DNA from: Mollicutes bacterium
GTDB lineage: Bacteria; Bacillota_I; Bacilli_A; RF39; UBA660
Length of the DNA: 64,000 nt
Assembly: GCA_012799635.1 (NCBI GenBank)
Contig: JAAZKW010000003.1
Coordinates: 603 to 64,602 of the forward strand
Reading direction: 5' to 3'
Of the stretch, positions 10,176 through 59,332 are shown piece by piece. The position numbers were made by a program, and so were the translations under genes. Every line of letters starts with the position of its first letter. The stretch's first letter is position 1. The notes below the pieces were generated by a model. The model ran no database searches, was not told the origin of the DNA, and saw only the letters and a program-made list of their open reading frames with translations.

Positions 10176-10261
10176 TACATTATCATAAAGTTAATATTCT
10201 TTATTTTTTAATTATGTTGAAATAATAAGTGTTTTTTTATATAATAATAATAGGTGAAGAT

Positions 10262-13200
10262 ATGAAAAAAAAGCATTTATTATTTATTTTTATATTTATA
10301 TCTGCATTAATGCTCTTTTTTGTTCCTAAAAATAAGTTAACTACAATTGAATTTAAACCAAATATTATGTTTTATAATCCTTCGGTATATGATAATACTG
10401 AATTTGTTACTAGATGGAAAACGGATGTAAGTGGTGTAAATCCCAATGCAGTAACTTTAAGTTTTAATTTAAAAGGCACAGCTTGGTATGAAGTTTCTTG
10501 GACATGTAATGGTACATATGAGCCAGTGTTTAATCCTATACATACTCATGAATATGCTACGGCAGGTACTTATGATGTATGTATTAGAACTGCTTATCCA
10601 CTTCATTTTTATGCTCCAGGATTGACTGACAATGATAAAGCAAAGCTTTTAGAAGTTAAACAATGGGGAAATATTAAGTGGTCAAGTTTTAGAGAATCTT
10701 TTAAAGGTATGACAAATATGGATATTACTGCCGAAGACATTCCTAATTTATCTAATGTTACTGATATGGCATATGCTTTTGAAGGTGCTTCTAATCTTAT
10801 TGGAAACGAAGCAATGAAAAATTGGGATACTAGTAAAGTAATTAATATGAATAGTTTATTTAGGTATGCTAACAATTTTAATGCTCCAATTGGTGATTGG
10901 AATACGATTAGTGTAACTGATATGAAATTAATGTTTAGTGAAGCCTTTTTATTTAATCAGGATATTGGTAATTGGAAAACTGAAAATGTAACAAGTATGG
11001 CCCATATGTTTTATAAAGCTTCTTCGTTTAATCAGAATATTGGTTCTTGGGATATTAGTGAAAATACTTCTATGCTTTGTATGTTTGAAGAAGCAACTAA
11101 TTTTAATAATGGTGCAGCTGCAGGAGAAGTAGGAGAGCCACTTCTTTGGAACACTTCAAAAGTTACTACAATGCAAAGACTTTTTAGACACGCAAGTAGT
11201 TTTAATTCTCCGATTAATAATTGGGATACTTCAAATGTAACAAACATGATAAGGGTGTTTTCAGGTGCAGCAAGCTTTAATCAACCATTAAACAATTGGA
11301 AAACAGGAAACGTTACTTCAATGAGAGAAATGTTTAGGGGCGCTTCGGAATTTAATCAAAATATTAGTAGTTGGGACATTTCAAAGGTAACAGATTTATC
11401 AAATATGTTTTGGTCTGCTAGTTCTTTTAATAATGGGCAAGCTCCAGGAGAGGAAACAGCACCATTAAATTGGACTACAAGTAGTGTTACTGATATGGCT
11501 TATATGTTTTATTATGCTCCATCATTTAATCAACCACTAAACGGTTGGAATACTTCATCTGTAACTAATATGACAGCTATGTTTGGTTCTGCAACTTCGT
11601 TTAATCAAGATATTGGGAATTGGAGAACTGAAAATGTAACAAATATGAGTAGCATGTTTAACAATGCCTCTAGTTTTAATAATGGTGAAAAAACTAATGG
11701 TGGTAGTAAAGCATTAAATTGGAATACTTCAAAAGTAGAAAATATGAGTAGAATGTTTTATTGGGCAATAACATTTAATCAACCAATAAATAGTTGGAAT
11801 ACTTCTTTAGTTACCACTACCAGACAAATGTTTGAACGTGCAGAAAAGTTTAATCAACCTTTAAGTAATTGGAAAATGGGAAATGTAACTGATATGTCAG
11901 GTATGTTTGCTGCTGCTTTAGTTTTTAATCAAGATATAAGCGGATGGAACACTAGTAATGTAGTTAATATGTCTTATTTATTTAGACTTGCGGGTGATTT
12001 TAATAAAGATATTGGTTCTTGGAATACTTCAAGTGTAACCGATATGTCTTTTATGTTTGATTATGCAACTTCGTTTAATCAAGATATTTCAAAATGGGAA
12101 ATTGAAAGTGTATCAAGAATTAGTTATTTTATAAGTAATTCAGACATGAAGCCAAATAATTATGATAAATTGTTGACTTCTTTTAGTCAGCAAAATATTA
12201 TTTCGGGATTATCCTTAGGAGCTGTTGGTATTTATTATTGTAATGCCAAAACTGCTAGAGATACTTTAACAAATCATCCGAATAATTGGCGTATTAGTGA
12301 TGCAGGCAAAAATTGTCCGCCAGTGGATCTAAAATTATCTGAAAATGAAATATTTGAAAACACTAAAAAGGTAGGTACTATTTCTGCAATTGATCCAGAG
12401 GGTCAAGAAGTTGTATATATATTGATTGATGGAGAGGGTTCTGAAGACAATGATAAGTTTATCTTAGATTATCAAACAGGTAAATTATCATTTAAAGAAG
12501 CCCCAGATTTTGAAAATCCAACAGATATCGGAGAACCACTCACTACAAACACTTATTCAATTCGTGTAAGAGCAATTGATGATATTGGTAGTTATAAAGA
12601 AAAAGTCTTTGTTATAACAGTAAAAGATGCTGATGATGTTCCGCCAGTAATTGAGATAAAGTCTATAACAAAAGATTCTGTTGGTCCAATTACTGATACA
12701 ACAATAGAAATAAGTGATAGATTTTCAATTGCCGATGTAGATGTAACTAGTTTAAGTACCGCTATTGTAGATGATCTTGTTTGTACTCCAAATAATCCAG
12801 AACAAACAGACGATCTTGATTTCCCGTTTGAAAATAAAAATCCTGTAGCAGGTAATCATTTAAAAATTACTTGTACGCTAAGAATAAAATCAACAGGTAA
12901 GTTAGTCGTAATTGCTGAAGATTTATTAGGTTACCAGTCAATTGCTGAAGAAAAAAATTACTTCATTAGTACTTTAGGGCCAGATTTTAAACGAAAAGAA
13001 GTTGATGTAACAAGTAGTGGTAATGATATTAATAATCCGATGTTATATATTGAAATGGTTGATGAAGAAAATATTGATAAAATAGAAATAAAATATATTT
13101 CGCCAACAGGTGTTATTACTGAAAGATATACTGGTCCAAAACGATTACATTTAGATTCAACTGAGATGCCACATCAAATATTTATGACTGCATATAATAA

Positions 13201-15463
13201 ATCTGGTAAATATACTACTAATAAAATAGTTTATCCATCAACAATAAGCTTTCTTCCACCTAAAACAGTAAGTAATGAAACAGTTAATAATGTTCAAGTT
13301 AAAATTAAAGCTTCCGATCCAGCTAAAACAATATCAAATATAAATTTAAATGGTTCTTCAATTGAGGGTTTACAAATTACTGGTTGTGATGAACCTTCAT
13401 ATACTGATGAAGTGACGTGTACTATTAATAATATAAATAAATCAGGCATTGTTATGGTTCAAGCAACTGATGATGATACTGGAGTAATTGGTTGTAATAC
13501 TTTAAAGTTTATTATAGATGAAAATAAACCTTCTTTAATTGTTAATACTCCAACTTTACTTAGTAATAATTCAATTACTGATACTAAAGTAGTTCTAACA
13601 GATGATAATTATACAGAAAAAATAGAAATTGATATAAATTCAACTGCTTTGACAAGTAACTTTGTTTGTACTAAAGAACTTGATGGTTCAATTGAGTGTG
13701 CTTTAAGTGTTGATTCAACAGGTTCTGTTATATTTAAAGGTTATGATAAAGCAGGAAATTTTGAAACTAAAACAGTTAATTATACTGTCGATAAAGAAAG
13801 CCCAAATATTGCGATTGATAATGATTTTATTTACTTTGATAATATTGAGAGTTATAAATTTAAGGGGACATGTACTTTTGGAGATAATGATTTACTTTTA
13901 ACAATAACAAATGGAATAACAACAAATAAAAATGTGCCTTGCCTAAATGATAATACTTGGGAATATACTTTAGATATGAGTTCTTATCATGATGGATCAT
14001 TACTTGTGTCATTATCACAAAGTGATAAAGTAGGAAATGAATCATATATAACTAAAACGATTGTAAAAGATACAAAAGGTCCGGCATTATATTTTGATGG
14101 TCTTGATTTTGTTAATAGTCAAAATCAAAATAATTATGTAATTAAAGGATATTGTGAAGCAGATAATAATGTTAGTTTAAAAGTAAATGATGATAATTAT
14201 GCTATAAATTGTAATAGTCATGTATTTGAAAAAGAATTAAATCTTTCAAATATTGTTGATGGTGATATCTTTTTAACCATTACTCAAAGTGATGATAAAG
14301 GAAATGTTACTACAATAGATGATATCTTAATAAAAAATACTACAAGACCTAATATTAATATTAAAAATGTAGGTGCAAAGGTTACAAATCAAGCAACAAT
14401 AAAATTTAGTTTGATATCTAGTAAAAAGATAGAAAATATTGCTAAAGATATGATCACTATTGAAGGCTCAAGTACAGCTGAAATATTAGAAATATTGAAA
14501 GTTAATAATAAGACTTTTGATATATTTGTATCAAATATGAGTAATAATGATAATATTAAATTAAAAGTAAATGCTAATACACTAGAAGATATCTATGGTA
14601 ATTTAAATTATGAAAGCATTTATTCAGGAAATTCTGTCTATTTTGATAATGAAGCTCCAGTAATTACCTTAAATGGTGATAAACAAGTTAAATTATTAAA
14701 AGGAACAGTCTATAATGAACTTGGAGTAACGTGTAAAGATAATTATGATTCAAATTGTAAAATTATAATAAACGGTGAAGTTGATACTAATGTTTTAGGT
14801 ACATATATTATAACTTATACTGCTAAAGATTTATTAAATCATGAAAGCGTTTTAATAAGAGAAATAATTATTTACGAAGGTCCTAAACCAATAACAAAAA
14901 AACCAAGAATAAGGTCTAAAAAACCAATATTAAAACAAGATGTTATAGTAGAGAAAAAAGAGGATATTTTTGAGAAAGATACTGTTAGAGAAGATTTAAT
15001 AACAAAAGAAGATTATTTAGATGTATATAAAATAGATCCAACAGACTATCATAAATCTTTAGCAAGAGCTTTAATTAAAACAAAGGGCGGATGTTCCTTA
15101 ACAAATAATCTTGAAGTATTAGATACCGATAAGATTAAAAACCCAAGAAATGTTAAGATTTTATCTGGATTAGAATATGAACTTGATTGTAGCAAAAAAG
15201 GTGAGACTAAAATAACTGTTCTTTTAGGAGAGTACTATAAAAACCCAAGTAAATTAAGGTTTTATACTATGATAAATGGAAAATTAGTTAATATATCAGA
15301 TAAAGTTCAAGTTTATAATGATGAAGATCATACATTCTTTGCATATATAGCTAATAATTCAAATAATATTTATATAGGTGAAAAAATACCAGGTTATTGG
15401 TGGTTATTATTCTTATTAATAGTACCAATATATATTGCAAGAAAAAGAAAAAGCATTAAATAA
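10262..15463 (+). CDS. giant surface protein: BspA/DUF285 leucine-rich repeats, cadherin-like and Ig-like domains, C-terminal TM anchor
   Basis: Signal/TM at the N-terminus. About 18 tandem ~26-aa units (A.sFNq.Ig.WnTs.VTnM..MF) encoded at nt ~10650-12180. Cadherin-like segment (ISAIDPEG...YSIRVRAIDD...VTVKDADD) at ~12320-12650. DUF5011-like Ig domain at ~14650-14880. Tail is GYWWLLFLLIVPIYIARKRK. Start taken at the ATG at 10262, not the GTG at 10229. Confidence 0.85.
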   Translation: MKKKHLLFIFIFISALMLFFVPKNKLTTIEFKPNIMFYNPSVYDNTEFVTRWKTDVSGVNPNAVTLSFNLKGTAWYEVSWTCNGTYEPVFNPIHTHEYATAGTYDVCIRTAYPLHFYAPGLTDNDKAKLLEVKQWGNIKWSSFRESFKGMTNMDITAEDIPNLSNVTDMAYAFEGASNLIGNEAMKNWDTSKVINMNSLFRYANNFNAPIGDWNTISVTDMKLMFSEAFLFNQDIGNWKTENVTSMAHMFYKASSFNQNIGSWDISENTSMLCMFEEATNFNNGAAAGEVGEPLLWNTSKVTTMQRLFRHASSFNSPINNWDTSNVTNMIRVFSGAASFNQPLNNWKTGNVTSMREMFRGASEFNQNISSWDISKVTDLSNMFWSASSFNNGQAPGEETAPLNWTTSSVTDMAYMFYYAPSFNQPLNGWNTSSVTNMTAMFGSATSFNQDIGNWRTENVTNMSSMFNNASSFNNGEKTNGGSKALNWNTSKVENMSRMFYWAITFNQPINSWNTSLVTTTRQMFERAEKFNQPLSNWKMGNVTDMSGMFAAALVFNQDISGWNTSNVVNMSYLFRLAGDFNKDIGSWNTSSVTDMSFMFDYATSFNQDISKWEIESVSRISYFISNSDMKPNNYDKLLTSFSQQNIISGLSLGAVGIYYCNAKTARDTLTNHPNNWRISDAGKNCPPVDLKLSENEIFENTKKVGTISAIDPEGQEVVYILIDGEGSEDNDKFILDYQTGKLSFKEAPDFENPTDIGEPLTTNTYSIRVRAIDDIGSYKEKVFVITVKDADDVPPVIEIKSITKDSVGPITDTTIEISDRFSIADVDVTSLSTAIVDDLVCTPNNPEQTDDLDFPFENKNPVAGNHLKITCTLRIKSTGKLVVIAEDLLGYQSIAEEKNYFISTLGPDFKRKEVDVTSSGNDINNPMLYIEMVDEENIDKIEIKYISPTGVITERYTGPKRLHLDSTEMPHQIFMTAYNKSGKYTTNKIVYPSTISFLPPKTVSNETVNNVQVKIKASDPAKTISNINLNGSSIEGLQITGCDEPSYTDEVTCTINNINKSGIVMVQATDDDTGVIGCNTLKFIIDENKPSLIVNTPTLLSNNSITDTKVVLTDDNYTEKIEIDINSTALTSNFVCTKELDGSIECALSVDSTGSVIFKGYDKAGNFETKTVNYTVDKESPNIAIDNDFIYFDNIESYKFKGTCTFGDNDLLLTITNGITTNKNVPCLNDNTWEYTLDMSSYHDGSLLVSLSQSDKVGNESYITKTIVKDTKGPALYFDGLDFVNSQNQNNYVIKGYCEADNNVSLKVNDDNYAINCNSHVFEKELNLSNIVDGDIFLTITQSDDKGNVTTIDDILIKNTTRPNINIKNVGAKVTNQATIKFSLISSKKIENIAKDMITIEGSSTAEILEILKVNNKTFDIFVSNMSNNDNIKLKVNANTLEDIYGNLNYESIYSGNSVYFDNEAPVITLNGDKQVKLLKGTVYNELGVTCKDNYDSNCKIIINGEVDTNVLGTYIITYTAKDLLNHESVLIREIIIYEGPKPITKKPRIRSKKPILKQDVIVEKKEDIFEKDTVREDLITKEDYLDVYKIDPTDYHKSLARALIKTKGGCSLTNNLEVLDTDKIKNPRNVKILSGLEYELDCSKKGETKITVLLGEYYKNPSKLRFYTMINGKLVNISDKVQVYNDEDHTFFAYIANNSNNIYIGEKIPGYWWLLFLLIVPIYIARKRKSIK

Positions 15464-42543: not shown

Positions 42544-42549
42544 TAAGAT

Positions 42550-42718
42550 GCTTAGAGATAGTTTATTAGTATATAAAACCGACAAAGATAAAATAAGGGA
42601 GTCTAATGGATTTACGGTGTGAAAACTTAATTTAATTAAGGATCCTAAAGTAATCTTGTGACTTACCACCTGCGAAGAGCGGGCTTTATCAACGATAGAC
42701 TTTCTTTAAGCATTTTTT
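42550..42718 (+). ncRNA. candidate 6S-like RNA (rod-shaped ~169-nt RNA upstream of tcdA)
   Basis: 42550-42580 pairs with 42682-42711: 17 consecutive positions with one mismatch and three G.U, then 9 more pairs. Internal bubbles, an inner imperfect stem, and T6 at 42713-42718. Same position (upstream of the yrvM/tcdA homologue, downstream of the hisS operon) as Bacillus subtilis bsrA/6S-1. Confidence 0.45.
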
Positions 42719-46930: not shown

Positions 46931-47036
46931 TTGACAAAGGATAATATCTTTGATAATATTAATTTGTGATTAGTTCATTTACCTATTTTTGATTAATTTC
47001 AATGTTTGGTATATATATGAATTAATCACTTTTTTT
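46931..47036 (+). repeat. promoter-hairpin-U-tract element, copy A
   Basis: TTGACA 46931-36, 17 nt, TGaTAATAT (-10 at 46954-59). G46966 starts the arm GTGATTAGTTCAT (46966-78), which pairs with ATGAATTAATCAC (47017-29). T7 at 47030-36. Confidence 0.75.
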
Positions 47037-47048
47037 AGGATAAATATT

Positions 47049-47578
47049 ATGGTTAATTTAGAAACAATTCAAAAAGAGATAACCTCTAAAAGAAACGAAC
47101 TTTTAAAACATTATGTTAAAGACTATTGTATTGAAAATATGGCAAATAAAACCCGAAAATTTTTAATTAACAAAGAAGGAAAATATTTAGAAGTTACTCT
47201 TGAAGGTAATATAAAAGTAGTTGATGAAAAAAACAAAGATATGAATATTATCTATTTGACTTAAGTTCTGAGGAATATGTTTTTTGCTGTTATTCATTTG
47301 AATTTAAAAGTAAAAACAATCTTAAAATTTTAAATGATTTTTATCATTATCCTATTAAAACCTTTCCTAGTGAATCCGAAATTTTTGATTTTCAATTATT
47401 TGCAGAAGTTGACAGGTTAACATTTATACAATATTTATTACGTACTAAAGGAAGTATTCGTAAGAACATAATAGAACTTGAAAATGATGGCTTTATTGAA
47501 TTTAATTTTTTTCGTTACCATAATCACAACAGATGTCGTCAAAAATATACTGAGCTAATAAAAAGCAAAAACAACTGA
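47049..47578 (+). pseudogene. small protein gene split by a frameshift at an A7 tract (72-aa frame-0 part plus a 116-codon Met-less -1 frame)
   Basis: Frame 0 stops at 47262-64. The -1 frame is open from 47228 to 47578 and contains no Met. A7 lies at 47227-33 within A_AAA_AAC. The fused product shares an RYEYY[LI]F motif with the next gene. Confidence 0.65.
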
Positions 47579-47674
47579 TATTTAAAGTTTTCTAAATCAG
47601 TTTTTTAATGTAACTGTACTTGACTTAAACAAATGATTTTGTTAGTATAGCTACTTGTTAAGGAGAAATATATT

Positions 47675-48232
47675 ATGAATAAAATAGAAAAAATTAGAAA
47701 CGATGCTATTATACAAATCCTGAATTTTTATTTTGGTAATGATAGTATATATTATATTTTATTAAAAAACTTTGAAAAACCAATTTATTTTGAAAAAAGA
47801 ATTTTAAAATTAACTAAAGATAGTAATATATATATAATAGATTCACAAAATCATAGATATGAATATTATATTTTTAATTTTGAGAATAATTTAAATCCAT
47901 TTCATCATTTTATTATTCAAATATATAATGATAATCTCATTCAAGTACACCATTCGGTTATTGGCTATAAAGATAATACTTTTGAATATTTTAGTAACGC
48001 ATATGTTCTTGAAATTTTAAGAAAGGAACAAACTAATGATATCGAGTTTGTATCAAATTTACTTAAACCTAATTTCTATGAAATACTAAAAAAACTTGAA
48101 CACGAGAAAAAGATAAAAATTTGTCATATTTCAGATTTTATACATCATCATAACATCGGTTTAGATGAATGCCTTAATATGACATTTGATAATAAAGTAA
48201 AGAAAAGTAGGGGAGAAAATATAAAAATGTAA
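47675..48232 (+). CDS. hypothetical protein (185 aa), weak paralogue of the frameshifted gene
   Basis: RBS AAGGAGA. Promoter-like TTGACT-17-TAGTAT at ~47619-47647. Shares the HRYEYYIFNF motif with 47049-47578. Confidence 0.6.
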   Translation: MNKIEKIRNDAIIQILNFYFGNDSIYYILLKNFEKPIYFEKRILKLTKDSNIYIIDSQNHRYEYYIFNFENNLNPFHHFIIQIYNDNLIQVHHSVIGYKDNTFEYFSNAYVLEILRKEQTNDIEFVSNLLKPNFYEILKKLEHEKKIKICHISDFIHHHNIGLDECLNMTFDNKVKKSRGENIKM

Positions 48233-48274
48233 TTATATTAAAATATATGATATAATGCGTAATAGGAGGATATA

Positions 48275-48796
48275 ATGACAAAAGAGCAGTTAGAAAAGTT
48301 ATATGAAAAATGCAAAGAAAAATGGGAAGCTTCAGGGAAAGATATTTTAATCGATACCGAAGAGATTAACAAACTTTGTGAGTATGGAGTAGCAATTGAA
48401 CAAATTTTTTATCATAATAATATGATGATTGACGGAAGAGGTTATGATTTCAATGAAAATGATGAACTAATTATTTACCTTATTAAAGACAATAAAGAAA
48501 ATGGGAAGATAATTTTATCTTTTAATGGTATAAACATTAGTTATATGGATAAAAGAGGAACCTCTGAAGCGTATAGCAATATTAGTTATAATGGTGAGTA
48601 TACCTATGGAACAATTAGTAAAATAGTTAATGATTCATATATTATTTCTGCTGATATTAATGATAACTCTTATTCTATTGGAGGCGAAAGTTATGCTTTT
48701 TCATCTGATAGTGAAGCTGCAAAAATAAATGAGGTATACAATTTACTAGCAATATTATCTAAAAACGAAGGGTTAAGTAGTCGTAGTAATAATTAA
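48275..48796 (+). CDS. hypothetical protein (173 aa)
   Basis: RBS AGGAGGA. No domain recognised. Confidence 0.6.
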   Translation: MTKEQLEKLYEKCKEKWEASGKDILIDTEEINKLCEYGVAIEQIFYHNNMMIDGRGYDFNENDELIIYLIKDNKENGKIILSFNGINISYMDKRGTSEAYSNISYNGEYTYGTISKIVNDSYIISADINDNSYSIGGESYAFSSDSEAAKINEVYNLLAILSKNEGLSSRSNN

Positions 48797-48819
48797 TTTA
48801 ATAATTTTTAAAAAAACAC

Positions 48820-48926
48820 TTGACATATTACATAGTATTTGATAATATTAAGTTGTGATTAGTTCATTTACCTATTATTGATTAATTTCAATGTTTGGTA
48901 TATATATGAATTAATCACTTTTTTTT
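48820..48926 (+). repeat. promoter-hairpin-U-tract element, copy B
   Basis: TTGACA 48820-25, 17 nt, TAATAT 48843-48. Arms at 48855-67 and 48906-18. T8 at 48919-26. Confidence 0.75.
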
Positions 48927-48964
48927 ATGTAAATTAATATTTTCTTAAAACTAAATATAGATAA

Positions 48965-48993
48965 TTGCTTATCTATATTTTTTATCTTATAAT
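48965..48993 (+). promoter_or_regulatory. promoter placing the transcription start at the xer ATG (leaderless mRNA)
   Basis: TTGCTT 48965-70, 17 nt, TATAAT 48988-93. The ATG is at 49001 and has no Shine-Dalgarno. Confidence 0.5.
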
Positions 48994-49000
48994 ATTATAT

Positions 49001-49876
49001 ATGAATAATAAATACATAGAAAATTATTTAGACTATTTAAAATATGAAAGAAAACTTTCAAAAAACACTTATTTATCTTATAAATATAATTTAAACAAGT
49101 TTTCTTACTTTTTAGGTAATGAGTCTTTGCTTACAGTTACTACTAATAAAATTAGAGCTTTTTTATACGATAGTAATATGAAATCTAGAACAAGAGCTCA
49201 TTTTTTAACTGTAATTAATTCCTTATACTTATATTTAATAGAAAATAACTTACTAGAAGAAAATCCATGTGCTTTAATTAAACTACCTAAACTTGAAAAA
49301 AAACTTCCATCATACTTAACAATTGAGGAAGTAGATAAAATGCTTAATATTAATCCTAAAAAGCCTTTAGACTATCGAAATATAGCTATGCTTGAGGTTA
49401 TGTATGGTAGTGGACTTAGAATAAGCGAAGTGTGTGATATGCTTGTTAGCAATATCGATTTTGATGAAGCTATAATTAGAATAATAGGGAAGGGCAGTAA
49501 GGAAAGAATTGTTCCTATGAATGATAAGAGTATTAATGCTTTAAAAGAATATATTAATAACTATAGATCCTTTTTACTTAAAGATAAAACTAGTGAATTT
49601 GTATTTTTAAATAAATTTGGAAATAAACTTTCAAGAGTTGGTTTCTTTAAAATCGTAAAAAAAATATGTGAATTATCTGGTATTGATAAAGATATATCCC
49701 CACACACGCTTAGACACTCATTTGCAACTCATTTACTTAATAATGGAACTAATCTAAGAGTAATACAAGAACTGCTTGGACACAGTAATATTACAACTAC
49801 ACAAGTGTATTCTCACATATCAAATGAAAGTATTAAAAGAGATTACGATAATCATCCAAGAGGTAAGAATGAATAG
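49001..49876 (+). CDS. XerC/XerD-family tyrosine recombinase
   Basis: N-terminal SAM-like domain (YLDYLKYERKLSKNTYLSY). Catalytic box HTLRHSFATHLLNNGTNLRVIQELLGHSNITTTQVYSH with R..HxxR..Y. 291 aa from the ATG at 49001. Confidence 0.88.
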   Translation: MNNKYIENYLDYLKYERKLSKNTYLSYKYNLNKFSYFLGNESLLTVTTNKIRAFLYDSNMKSRTRAHFLTVINSLYLYLIENNLLEENPCALIKLPKLEKKLPSYLTIEEVDKMLNINPKKPLDYRNIAMLEVMYGSGLRISEVCDMLVSNIDFDEAIIRIIGKGSKERIVPMNDKSINALKEYINNYRSFLLKDKTSEFVFLNKFGNKLSRVGFFKIVKKICELSGIDKDISPHTLRHSFATHLLNNGTNLRVIQELLGHSNITTTQVYSHISNESIKRDYDNHPRGKNE

Positions 49877-50107
49877 ATTCTTTCTAAAGAGTAAGTTAAC
49901 ATAATATATATTATGTGAAGTTATTAATTTTAAATTTAGTCCTTGTTTTTGATATCTTTTAAATTAAATTATATTTACTAGTAATATCTATCTTTTCTAT
50001 AAACGCTATAAAAAATGTTTTTTATTTAGAAAGATTCATAATGATACTAAATTAAACTCATTAATGATTTGTTATAACCTTATTTTATTAAATATAAGGT
50101 ATTTATT

Positions 50108-50166: not shown

Positions 50167-50189
50167 AAAGTAGGGGATTTCCCTACTTT
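50167..50189. terminator. bidirectional intrinsic terminator between the convergent xer and HTH genes
   Basis: 9-bp stem AAAGTAGGG/CCCTACTTT flanked by A and T runs. Confidence 0.65.
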
Positions 50190-55000: not shown

Positions 55001-55860
55001 AATCTAAAAATTATTTATTATTAATAACTTTTTTTATTGTTATATTAATGATATCAAGCTGTTCATTAAAGACAGATGATCTTGAAAATGCAACTATATA
55101 TACAACAGTATATCCTGTAAATTATCTAACTAAATATATTTATGGAGATTATGGAAAAATAACAAGTATATATCCCTCAAATACTAATGTTGATAAATAT
55201 AAACTTACCAAAAAACAAATTAAAGAATATTCCAAAGGTGATTTATTTATTTATAATGGGCTTACAAATGAAAAACAAATTGCTAAAAATTTAGTTAATC
55301 GTAATAACAAACTGCTTATAATAGATGTTTCAAATGGGCTTAGTATAGAATATGATACAATTGAGCTTTGGCTTTCACCGAATAATTTTTTAATGCTATC
55401 TAAAAATATTAAAAATAATCTTGAAGAATATCTAAAAAGCAAAATAATAATAGAACATATTAATAAGAAGTATGATGACCTACAAGAAAAAATATCTGTT
55501 TTAGATGCAATGCTTCATACTATAGGTAATAATGCTAAGAAAAATAATAAAAACACTTTGATAGTTTCTAATAATTTATTTAATTTCTTAGATAATTATG
55601 GATTCAATGTAATAAGTTTAGATCCTGATAATGATATTAAAGAAAATAAATTGACATCTATTAAAAGTAGCTTTAAATCTGGTAAATATGCCCACCTTTT
55701 AATAGCAGATATAGATAAAGAAAATAAAGACTTTAATGAATTAACAAAAGATATCAATGCTACCAAAATATATGTTAATACTTTAACATTCACTTTAGAA
55801 GAAGATTATTTTAATATTATGACAGAATTTATAGAAAATATTCGAACAATCACAAATTGA
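54997..55860 (+). CDS. ZnuA/TroA-like (cluster A-I) lipoprotein lacking the metal-binding histidines
   Basis: Lipobox ISSC. Collinear with AdcA/ZnuA (IYTTVYPVNYLTKYIYGD, DLFIYNG, LWLSP, LFNFLDNYGF), but EPHEY reads NVDKY, DPHVW reads TIELW, and QHAAF reads SNNLF. No ABC partner genes nearby. Confidence 0.55.
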   Translation: MKSKNYLLLITFFIVILMISSCSLKTDDLENATIYTTVYPVNYLTKYIYGDYGKITSIYPSNTNVDKYKLTKKQIKEYSKGDLFIYNGLTNEKQIAKNLVNRNNKLLIIDVSNGLSIEYDTIELWLSPNNFLMLSKNIKNNLEEYLKSKIIIEHINKKYDDLQEKISVLDAMLHTIGNNAKKNNKNTLIVSNNLFNFLDNYGFNVISLDPDNDIKENKLTSIKSSFKSGKYAHLLIADIDKENKDFNELTKDINATKIYVNTLTFTLEEDYFNIMTEFIENIRTITN

Positions 55861-56240: not shown

Positions 56241-56450
56241 ATATTTCTTGCTACTCATCCATTTTAACTTAAAAGTCAGATAAATGCAATGTTTTTTACT
56301 CTTTTTCTAGCGTTTTCGTTATTTTTTATTGCTTTTTTACATAATTTTAATATATAACCCTGTTTTAAATAATAAGCCAATAGCAAAATTCCAAAATAAA
56401 TTCAGTCATAATATTAAAATAATCTATTCTTTATCAATTAATAATTTATT

Positions 56451-57087: not shown

Positions 57088-57149
57088 ATATTTGTTGTTC
57101 CCGTTTATTAGTATAGCACAAGTTACTAAAAATTTAAATATTTAAATAA

Positions 57150-57175
57150 AAAATGTGATGAATTAATCACATTTT
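57150..57175. terminator. terminator hairpin containing the 13-mer ATGAATTAATCAC of the repeat family
   Basis: AAAATGTGAT gaatta ATCACATTTT, immediately 3' of the minus-strand gene ending at 57210. 57158-57170 is identical to the 3' arm of elements A-D. Confidence 0.55.
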
Positions 57176-57209: not shown

Positions 57210-58031
57210 TTATTTTCCTTTTATAAATCTTCTTACTCTTTCTTCAGGATCTTTCTCTAAATCATAAATTTCGTCTCTATAAGCTTTTAGCGTATAATCT
57301 GTTATAAATCCACTATTACTAAAATCTGGAGTTTTAAAATGCTCATCTTCAATTTCTTTTTTATAAATTATTGTTACAAAGTCCAATATTTCTGCATAAG
57401 TAATAGAATTAAGATACCGTGGTTGTCCATCATATATATATATTTCCTCTCCACCACCAAAAGATTGCGTTTTATAAAGATGCAAATTAATATTTACATA
57501 TGTTGGAACACCATCTCTTGTAATAGCAACATTGTTGTCAGCATTAATATCTGGCAATTTTAATTCTATACCAGGTAGACCTGTTCCATATATACCACCC
57601 CACACATAACGTTTCATATCTAAAAAAAAATCATAAATTCCCATTTTTTCAATATATTCAGGTAGCCCATGTAATAATGTTTTATCAGCATCAGGATTAT
57701 TATTCATCAAAATAGAAATAAATTTTTCCAAATCATAAGAACTTACATTAAAATTAAGGTTTTTTATTAAAAATTCAAAGCCCTCATCCCAATCTAACAT
57801 ATGAAGACTTTCTTCAGGGATTCCAATCTCAGAAATAATATAAGGGAATGTAACTAACATAACTCGTTCAATTTTATTATCATTTTTAACATAAAACACA
57901 TAAGCCGTTTCATATTTATCAGACTCCACAATTTTTTTTGCTATTTCTTTAGCTTTAGACAAATCTTTACCAACCACATCATAAAAAGAATAATTTTCAA
58001 ATGATCCCCACAATCCAAATGATTTATACAT
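57210..58031 (-). CDS. hypothetical protein (274 aa), paralogue 1 of a tandem pair
   Basis: Start is the ATG at 58031 after GGGAGG. The track ORF extension to 58118 reads through the repeat element. Collinear similarity to 58286-59188. Confidence 0.7.
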   Translation of the reverse strand: MYKSFGLWGSFENYSFYDVVGKDLSKAKEIAKKIVESDKYETAYVFYVKNDNKIERVMLVTFPYIISEIGIPEESLHMLDWDEGFEFLIKNLNFNVSSYDLEKFISILMNNNPDADKTLLHGLPEYIEKMGIYDFFLDMKRYVWGGIYGTGLPGIELKLPDINADNNVAITRDGVPTYVNINLHLYKTQSFGGGEEIYIYDGQPRYLNSITYAEILDFVTIIYKKEIEDEHFKTPDFSNSGFITDYTLKAYRDEIYDLEKDPEERVRRFIKGK

Positions 58032-58071
58032 AAAACCAAACCTCCCTATTATATTGTTTATAATTTTCTTA

Positions 58072-58176
58072 AAAAAAGTGATTAATTCATATATATAACA
58101 AACATTGAAATTAATCAACTAAGGTAAATGAACTAATCACAATTTAATATTATCAAAAACCATGAAGTATGTCAAG
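58072..58176 (-). repeat. promoter-hairpin-U-tract element, copy C
   Basis: Minus strand: TTGACA 58171-76, 17 nt, TAATAT 58148-53. Arms at 58129-41 and 58079-91. T7 at 58072-78. Confidence 0.75.
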
Positions 58177-58285: not shown

Positions 58286-59188
58286 TTATTTTCTATTTAC
58301 AAGCCTTCTAAATCTTTGCGCAAATCCTGATTTAGGTTTTTCTATTTCTTCTGAATCCCCAATAGTAACATAGTAAGTTCCTGGTTCTAATTCTTCTAAT
58401 TTTTTTTCTTCTTGTAAAGATGTTCTTTTAAATCCAATTGAACTAAAATCTAAGTTTTTAAAATGTCTACCATATTTATTACCATATTCATACATTCTCA
58501 CTACAAAGTCAAGTATTTCTGTATAAGAAATAGCAAGTGGACTTAGTTTTATATCTTCTATAGATAATTGGCCATCACTAGATGATGTTATTTTACAAAT
58601 GTGAAAATCAGGATCTACATATGTAGGAATACCATCTCTTGTAATAGCAACATTGTTTTCATCATTAATATCTGGCAAGTTTAATTTTTTAATTATTTCA
58701 TCATCGCCTATACCAGTCCACAGATAACGTTCCATATTTAAATAATTATCAATATAAACTCTTTTTTTAACAAAGAGATGACGTTCCATATTAAAATAAT
58801 TATCAATATAAACTCTTTTTTTAACAAAGAATGGAAGGCCATTAAGCCATTTTTCATTAGCATCAGGATTATTCTCTATTAAATTAGAAAGAAATTTTCT
58901 CATATCATCATGACTTACATCAAAATTAAGGTTATTTATTATAAACCCAAATCCCTCATCCCTATTTAATCTGCGGATGTTTACGTCAAGTTTTGTAGTC
59001 TCAATATTATCTAAATCCATCGAAGAAGCTAGCATAACTGATTCAATTTTATCACCGTTTTTAACATAAAAAACATCTATTTCTATATAATTAAACGACG
59101 TTGCAATTGTTTTTGCGAACTCTTTAACTTTAGACAAGTCTTTATCAACTACCTCATAAAATGAGAATTTTTTTAAATTGCTACTCAT
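58286..59188 (-). CDS. hypothetical protein (300 aa), paralogue 2, with an internal 18-aa tandem duplication
   Basis: Start is the ATG at 59188 after AGGAGG. Shares FYEVVDKDLSKVKEFAK, NNVAITRDG[IV]PTYV and YTEILDFV blocks with 57210-58031. Confidence 0.7.
   Translation of the reverse strand: MSSNLKKFSFYEVVDKDLSKVKEFAKTIATSFNYIEIDVFYVKNGDKIESVMLASSMDLDNIETTKLDVNIRRLNRDEGFGFIINNLNFDVSHDDMRKFLSNLIENNPDANEKWLNGLPFFVKKRVYIDNYFNMERHLFVKKRVYIDNYLNMERYLWTGIGDDEIIKKLNLPDINDENNVAITRDGIPTYVDPDFHICKITSSSDGQLSIEDIKLSPLAISYTEILDFVVRMYEYGNKYGRHFKNLDFSSIGFKRTSLQEEKKLEELEPGTYYVTIGDSEEIEKPKSGFAQRFRRLVNRK
58727..58834. repeat. 2 x 54-bp in-frame tandem duplication inside CDS 58286-59188
   Basis: 58727-58780 and 58781-58834 differ at only a few positions. 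They encode VKKRVYIDNY[FL]NMER[HY]L twice. Confidence 0.9.
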
Positions 59189-59226: not shown

Positions 59227-59332
59227 AAAAAAAAGTGATTAATTCATATATATACCAACCATTGAAATAAATCAAATAAGGTAAATGAACTAATCACAAT
59301 TTAATATTATCAAAGGTATTATACTTTGTCAA
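59227..59332 (-). repeat. promoter-hairpin-U-tract element, copy D
   Basis: Minus strand: TTGACA 59327-32 (inside the last codons of the ATPase gene), 17 nt, TAATAT 59304-09. Arms at 59285-97 and 59235-47. T8 at 59227-34. Confidence 0.75.

Follow-up and report, generated by a model that had tools for sequence, protein, structure and literature searches.

Within a stretch of 64,000 nucleotides from a Mollicutes bacterium (contig JAAZKW010000003.1 of assembly GCA_012799635.1, positions 603 to 64,602 of the forward strand, hereafter the window), one short element occurs four times, and in each copy a promoter reads directly into a hairpin that ends in a run of T residues. The explanation that we favour, and hold tentatively, is that the element is a reused promoter-leader cassette, in which the hairpin would end most transcripts at about 70 nt, gate the ORFan genes behind it by read-through, and end the transcription that arrives from the upstream gene. 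If this is true, one promoter-leader module is put to repeated use in a small AT-rich genome, where it both drives and damps several newly arisen genes. An earlier note on this DNA, made from the letters alone, had described the four copies with promoter, hairpin and T-run, and they are present as described; the pair of options that it offered, a sibling small RNA (sRNA) or a shared attenuator, is still the right pair.

The order of parts is the same in every copy: the -35 hexamer TTGACA, a 17-nt spacer, the -10 hexamer TAATAT preceded by TG, 6 nt, and then a G that opens the arm GTGATTAGTTCAT, which pairs with ATGAATTAATCAC 38 nt further on in copies A and B, or 37 nt further on in copies C and D. 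The stem has 13 bp, including one G.U pair, and is closed by a G-C pair; the hairpin measures 63-64 nt in total and is followed directly by a T-run of seven residues in A and C and of eight in B and D. The promoter hexamers, the G at the seventh nucleotide past the -10 and the 13-bp stem are identical in all four copies. On the forward strand, copy A extends over 46931-47036 (-35 at 46931-46936, -10 at 46954-46959, a hairpin with a 38-nt interior at 46966-47029, T7 at 47030-47036) and copy B over 48820-48926 (-35 at 48820-48825, -10 at 48843-48848, hairpin at 48855-48918, T8 at 48919-48926). On the reverse strand, copy C occupies 58071-58175 (-35 at 58175-58170, -10 at 58152-58147, a hairpin with a 37-nt interior at 58140-58078, T7 at 58077-58071) and copy D occupies 59227-59332 (-35 at 59332-59327, -10 at 59309-59304, hairpin at 59297-59235, T8 at 59234-59227). 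The coordinates first given for A, B and D are right, and those of copy C and its predicted start, 58141, were one base too high. All four copies fall within 12.4 kb and flank the replication terminus, A and B on its left and C and D on its right, and all of them, like their genes, point toward it; the GC skew switches sign near 50 kb, where gene orientations converge.

Several observations set these four sites apart from their surroundings. The 18-mer of the 5' arm occurs four times in the window, where 0.08 occurrences are expected by chance, and of the window's 67 promoter-like sites no others lead into a stable hairpin with a T-run at its end. In RNAfold the 13-bp stem forms together with two small apical helices (UACC/GGUA and UUGA/UCAA) at energies of -16.9 to -22.5 kcal/mol (z -4.8 to -6.5), and none of 200 shuffled sequences folds equally well. 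An interior palindrome that had been pointed out earlier, TTGATTAATTTCAA, amounts to just TTGA...TCAA, 4 bp around a 6-nt loop. At the level of sequence, then, each unit has its own promoter and, as a stable stem-loop set directly before a U-tract, its own intrinsic terminator, and the earlier description of a promoter transcribing a hairpin that ends in a U-tract is how the sequence is predicted to work. A consensus-like sigma-A promoter would start transcription at the first base of the 63-64-nt hairpin and, given the intrinsic-terminator layout provided by the seven or eight U residues directly after it, most transcripts should therefore stop as an RNA of about 70 nt.

The position of the copies relative to genes bears most directly on what such an RNA might do. 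In copies A, C and D, 1-31 nt separate the end of the unit from the ribosome-binding site of an ORFan gene that is restricted to the species: behind copy A the Shine-Dalgarno sequence AGGA begins 1 nt past the T-run, and behind copies C and D the sequences AGGGAGG and AGGAGG stand 23-24 nt past it. When the sequence at these loci was read, no other credible promoter was seen between the hairpin and the genes concerned (a1 behind copy A, and genes C and D behind the copies of the same letter), which would therefore be transcribed through the hairpin. Two candidate promoters were rejected: one inside the hairpin (TGnTATATA), as none of the hexamers in its 3' half combines A at position 2 with T at position 6, and a TATAAT behind the hairpin of copy C, from which the start would fall inside the Shine-Dalgarno sequence and which D does not share. 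Copies A, C and D are thus placed as an attenuator would be, between a promoter and a ribosome-binding site with no other promoter in the interval, and copy B is not. The idea of a stand-alone sRNA put forward in the earlier note consequently suits copy B only, the hairpins of the other three being part of the 5' leaders of genes for which no second credible promoter was seen.

In each of the four cases, the first and only terminator-like structure after the upstream gene on the same strand is the hairpin, and in copy D the promoter spacer even contains the stop codon (59319-59321) of the upstream P-type ATPase gene. No upstream open reading frame (ORF) is conserved among the copies, a TTG-initiated frame that is open in A and C being closed in the other two. 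On the favoured explanation, the hairpins of A, C and D would lie within the 5' leaders of fast-evolving, species-specific genes that are expressed only when RNA polymerase reads through; the cassette would act as a promoter-proximal attenuator, and the same hairpin would also terminate transcription coming from each upstream gene.

The fold of the RNA limits the ways in which read-through might be controlled. With the 3' arm excluded, so that no terminator can form, the best folds reach -4.5 to -9.9 kcal/mol, whereas the terminator reaches -15.7 to -21.3 kcal/mol, and among the folds of the four copies there is neither a mutually exclusive antiterminator structure nor an aptamer. When the 5' arm is blocked, the 3' arm of A and C, though not that of B and D, re-pairs with UGAUUAAUU, a near-copy of the 5' arm in the interior (-7.8 kcal/mol), and this alternative pairing again sets a hairpin just before the U-tract. 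Because the RNA is without a competing fold, a self-contained, riboswitch-like RNA switch is unlikely, and because it lacks an antiterminator fold of its own, read-through would be either a constant leak or dependent on a factor acting in trans. Within the cassette as we picture it, read-through may accordingly be a fixed leak, or it may be driven by a putative trans factor with the conserved 5' arm and the apical part as its binding site. That the four units belong to a regulon, in which the terminator is suppressed by a single trans factor, protein or RNA, through recognition of the invariant 5' arm and the apical part, is an extension that we think improbable. If it were true, fast-evolving, lineage-specific genes around the terminus would be switched on together with the accumulation of the terminated RNA of about 70 nt as a second product, and the element would be an attenuator that depends on a factor, lacks an antiterminator stem of its own and has no database relative.

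The hairpins are conserved far above the level of the neighbouring coding sequence. Genes C and D have diverged to a nonsynonymous rate (dN) of 0.39 and a synonymous rate (dS) of 0.46, and their hairpins differ at 4 of 70 positions, which is about eight-fold below the synonymous divergence (P ~1e-8). Moreover, the six variable columns of the hairpin all lie in the interior and none is found in the 26 arm positions (P 0.037). This pattern favours constraint. The earlier note had gone further, arguing for selection as opposed to recent copying on the grounds that the promoter spacers are almost completely different; the description is apt for the other pairs, which share 4-5 of 13 positions, but not for A and D (11 of 13) or for B and C (9 of 13). 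Similarity in the flanks pairs the copies in the same way as the spacer classes do, across the terminus. Over 140-147 nt, copies A and B share 84-87% identity; comparison of either with C or D gives 79-98% over 48-75 nt. A comparison of two strains revealed 15 differences in 2.5 kb, of which 4 are inside the 106-nt A unit, where 0.63 are expected (P 0.004), and 3 of these 4 shift A toward states present in B, C or D. These differences point to gene conversion between copies. Constraint is still favoured, and yet the argument for selection is weaker than first stated, since the spacers form two classes and the strain data point to gene conversion. The copies would, on the favoured explanation, be kept alike partly by gene conversion, and if that is so the case shows gene conversion keeping such modules alike.

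The claim that no described RNA family or repeat matches the element held throughout the searches, which took in Rfam and genome, metagenome, viral, phage and plasmid collections. In Rfam 15 there was no match on the element at the gathering score and none overlapping the hairpin at E values up to 10, the only matches of the window at the gathering score being three tRNAs and a 6S RNA. The exact two-arm pattern is absent from GTDB (one genome per species), from the JGI metagenomes and from IMG/VR, and the 18-mer of the 5' arm is likewise absent from IMG/VR. A set of 53 metagenome loci that share a 19-mer of the 3' arm proved to be chance terminators when scored by a covariance model, R1, and comparisons by blastn with phage and plasmid records returned chance partial matches only. 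The covariance-model search proposed in the earlier note was carried out with R1 over about 72 kb of contig, and its matches, there and in other assemblies of the same species, are these copies only; in the nearest genomes available, with Xer proteins of only 44-49% identity, the regions surrounding xer gave nothing. The 8 kb of contig beyond the window holds no further copy, which makes four copies in about 72 kb. Independent assemblies of this species from several samples do contain the element in the same sequence, at 99.2-100% identity. Ends of Logan contigs inside the element had been considered as possible transcript ends and were set aside, being explicable as breaks of the assembly graph at sequence common to the copies. 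The element thus appears so far to be confined to one uncultured species.

A number of points weigh against the cassette explanation. Transcription start, termination, read-through and any regulation are steps that we infer from the layout of the copies. There is no covariation, since the arms do not vary and the searches for relatives yielded none beyond the species, and the label of RNA family is likewise one that we infer from sequence. Gene conversion may account for part of the uniformity of the hairpins without strong selection. No candidate antiterminator protein was recognised in the part of the window's proteins that was scanned. Finally, copy B is not directly followed by a gene. The next gene, xer, has its own promoter, as the earlier note had said: TTGCTT at 48965-48970, 17 nt, and TATAAT at 48988-48993, read from the sequence. 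A second hairpin between copy B and xer (48953-48993, forward strand; a 12-bp A/T stem at 48953-48980 followed by a U-run) overlaps this promoter. In strain ERZ21942150, moreover, the sequence leaves that of the window inside the -35 of copy B, after its first T. The context of copy B and this break together suggest that at least one copy does not act as a leader.

Two observations on the same locus may be added. The TATAAT ends 7 nt before the ATG of xer, and the xer mRNA appears to be leaderless. In strain ERZ21942150 (contig L066 11146-11285, corresponding to window position 48821 onward) the sequence continues beyond the break as unrelated, more G+C-rich DNA, and the contig ends 140 nt later; this DNA has no match in the window, at the other loci or in plasmid records, and it may represent one end of an insertion sequence.

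Copy B is also the copy that best suits the alternative that the units are stand-alone, trans-acting sibling sRNAs, each of them a gene for a hairpin RNA of about 70 nt that acts on mRNAs or on a protein, with the proximity to genes being incidental. Every unit does have a complete promoter and terminator, and copy B, followed as it is by the second hairpin and the independent xer promoter, looks self-contained. The unpaired interior is near-invariant, which would be unneeded for a plain terminator, and on the opposite strand an A.C mismatch would take the place of the G.U pair, so that the strand of the RNA fits that of the promoter. Nevertheless, copies A, C and D lie right against the ribosome-binding sites of genes for which no other promoter is present, and the invariant loops are explicable by gene conversion. 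The prediction of targets from the interior, a check suggested in the earlier note, was made with RNAduplex against the 64-kb window and gave no signal beyond that of shuffled sequence, the best duplex of -22.5 kcal/mol falling within the range of eight shuffled queries (-20.3 to -22.9 kcal/mol). We consider this alternative unlikely, with the reservation that it is compatible with a role as leader, because premature termination could itself release a functional sRNA.

It is rather improbable that the element is unregulated intergenic punctuation, that is, a copied terminator-plus-promoter module whose hairpin terminates upstream transcription and protects the 5' end of the read-through mRNA. 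Such a function would agree with the absence of any other terminator-like structure behind each upstream gene, and with the stem starting at the predicted first transcribed base, as 5' stabilisers such as those of ompA, ermC and aprE require. It would also agree with the use of a short relative of the arm as a terminator behind gene C. This relative, GTGATTAATTCAT-CAC-A-TTTTTT at 57148-57170 on the reverse strand, matches the arm sequence at 13 of 13 positions (an exact 13-mer is expected 0.014 times in the window) and forms a 5-bp hairpin (GUGAU/AUCAC) with a U-run, for which reasons it is likely to be both a small terminator and a collapsed copy of the element. Plain punctuation, however, would put the terminator first, whereas here the promoter lies upstream of the terminator and its own transcripts meet it, and structure alone would not demand a near-invariant loop sequence.

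Still other explanations place the function in the DNA, as a MITE-like inverted repeat, an Xer site, a pair of operators or a set of polar fork barriers at the terminus, and these we regard as very unlikely. Their attraction lies in the setting. A gene for a XerD/XerC-like recombinase (xer, 49001-49876) is followed 18 nt past its stop codon by AGTTAACATAA-TATATA-TTATGTGAAGT (49894-49921), which lies at the sign switch of the GC skew and which, from its likeness to dif sites, we take to be dif-like; the xer gene and its probable target would thus adjoin each other at the terminus. Two copies on either side of this site point toward it, the spacer classes A/D and B/C span the terminus in a way that suggests exchange between its sides, and the four copies are clustered in 12.4 kb. 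Each arm, moreover, contains TGA-N5-TCA, as a pair of operators might. The orientation toward the terminus is merely that of the genes, however, and the unit is asymmetric, its promoter half having no mirror copy and no target-site duplication being visible. As an Xer/dif-type recombination site the element was rejected, its arms being unrelated in sequence to the dif-like site and 37-38 bp apart, compared with two 11-bp arms around a 6-8-bp centre; a distance of 37-38 bp is also too short for inversion by a tyrosine recombinase. A Rex/CRP-like operator was rejected as well, only the left half-site TGTGA being present. Any explanation of this kind leaves the consensus promoter at a fixed distance, the U-tract and the strand-specific G.U pair unexplained. 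Correia, repetitive extragenic palindromic (REP) and miniature inverted-repeat transposable element (MITE) repeats are likewise short, intergenic and hairpin-forming and may carry promoters or terminators, but the element differs from them in having no terminal inverted repeats around the unit, no target duplication, and four clustered copies in about 72 kb.

A module resembling type III toxin-antitoxin systems, in which a short RNA in excess neutralises the protein encoded just downstream, is highly improbable: the order of promoter, short non-coding RNA, intrinsic terminator and protein gene with a ribosome-binding site does match that of ToxIN, CptIN and TenpIN loci, where the terminator sets the ratio of RNA to protein, and the product of a1 (176 aa) is near the size of a ToxN-type toxin, but the element has no tandem RNA repeats, no ToxN/AbiQ-, CptN- or TenpN-type homologue or defence-family match was found in Pfam, PADLOC, NCBIfam or PDB sequences, and one and the same RNA precedes unrelated proteins (a1 as against C and D, with a4 compared with C).

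Among known systems, the cassette matches in kind the class of putative mobile promoters that Matus-Garcia, Nijveen and van Passel described in 2012, namely upstream regions at least 80% identical over at least 50 nt that precede non-homologous genes in one genome and have no associated transposase (PMC3575422). The copies reach that identity over that length before non-homologous downstream genes; the class is a purely descriptive one, to which the cassette adds a complete hairpin and U-tract starting from +1. The PeSLs of T4-like phages also combine a sigma-70-type promoter with a stem-loop and are repeated before variable ORFans, where they are thought to promote shuffling by recombination (PMC4122927, PMC2839356). 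In the PeSLs, however, the stem-loop is upstream of the promoter and the setting is a phage, whereas here it lies downstream, inside the transcript, and on a bacterial chromosome, so that the element is not a PeSL.

A strong promoter with a terminator within about 70 nt, and hence a short default RNA and a dependence of the genes beyond on read-through, is likewise found in the PR'-tR' unit of phage lambda, where the '6S' transcript is extended with Q, and in the leaders of the BglG/SacY type with a ribonucleic antiterminator (RAT) and terminator. In both of these the arrangement differs from the present one, in which the 5' arm of the terminator is the very 5' end of the RNA. Compared with a Q-type unit, a -10-like hexamer at +19 (TATTTT/TATTAT) is found here in A and B only and is not a conserved pause element; compared with the RAT leaders, there is no antiterminator stem that overlaps the terminator. 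No Q, BglG-type or ANTAR protein was recognised in the part of the window's proteins that was scanned. The sibling sRNAs Qrr1-5 and LhrC1-5 and the streptococcal csRNAs likewise occur as sets of nearly identical short RNA genes within one genome, every gene having a promoter and a terminator to itself, but they are free-standing and have defined seeds and targets, whereas three of the four copies here are fused 5' to a protein gene and give no target signal. The element is therefore an undescribed sequence family of a familiar kind, and a new mechanism is not demonstrated by these data. To our knowledge, almost no regulatory RNAs have been recorded from the uncultured Mollicutes-like Bacilli of anaerobic digesters, for which the element would, if the favoured explanation is true, supply a candidate sRNA or attenuator; its interest is local for now, the family having been seen in one species.

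As the earlier note had remarked, the downstream genes (a1, xer, and the pair C and D) are mutually unrelated, C and D alone being paralogous. Gene a1 (47049-47570, forward strand), behind copy A, had been called frameshifted; in this assembly it is indeed broken, by a 1-nt deletion at 47233, but it is intact (176 aa) in ERZ21942150, and for that reason a1 is a real gene. It is a distant paralogue of a3 (47675-48232), which has its own promoter at 47620-47648 on the forward strand (TTGACT, 17 nt, a TG-extended TAGTAT) and no hairpin; in this pair of paralogues the cassette is carried by a1 only. Genes C (57210-58031) and D (58286-59188), both on the reverse strand, are ORFans with copies C and D in their respective leaders. 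Their products share 46% amino-acid identity and measure 273 and 300 aa, the second as first reported and the first one residue shorter than the 274 then given.

The proteins a1/a3, a4 and C/D have no match in Pfam, NCBIfam, PHROGs, PADLOC or PDB sequences. A word-index search of 5.8 billion clustered proteins returned for them only proteins of their own species, as did a HMMER profile search of 1.84 billion representatives for C and D. An AlphaFold model of the product of gene C was too poor (pLDDT 49) and was not used. Gene D contains a 54-bp in-frame tandem duplication at 58722-58829 (18 aa, copies 96% identical) that is missing from the same gene in sample ERR11584583 (contig L001) and is thus a strain polymorphism. 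The product of gene C is identical to a protein of a metagenome-assembled genome recorded as Mollicutes bacterium (locus tags GX951_).

The window as a whole has a G+C content of 25%, and its long ORFs are read under the standard code. Beyond the dif-like site a bidirectional terminator is found at 50167-50189. The 6S RNA (Rfam RF00013) lies at 42545-42717 on the forward strand, between gatB and a ThiF-family gene, with a score of 46.5 bits that is just over the gathering score. A 30-nt inverted repeat, 97% complementary, has its arms at 55803-55832 and 56396-56425, one of them inside the 3' end of a ZnuA-like gene; the 563 nt between the arms hold a tRNA-Ser on the forward strand and a tRNA-Glu and a tRNA-Ile on the reverse strand, and the repeat may be the trace of an inversion or a duplication. 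An ORF of 1744 aa (10229-15463, forward strand) contains an array with a 75-nt period, at least 13 units of which, corresponding to 25-residue repeats, lie between 10.8 and 12.1 kb, and it probably encodes a repeat-rich surface protein.

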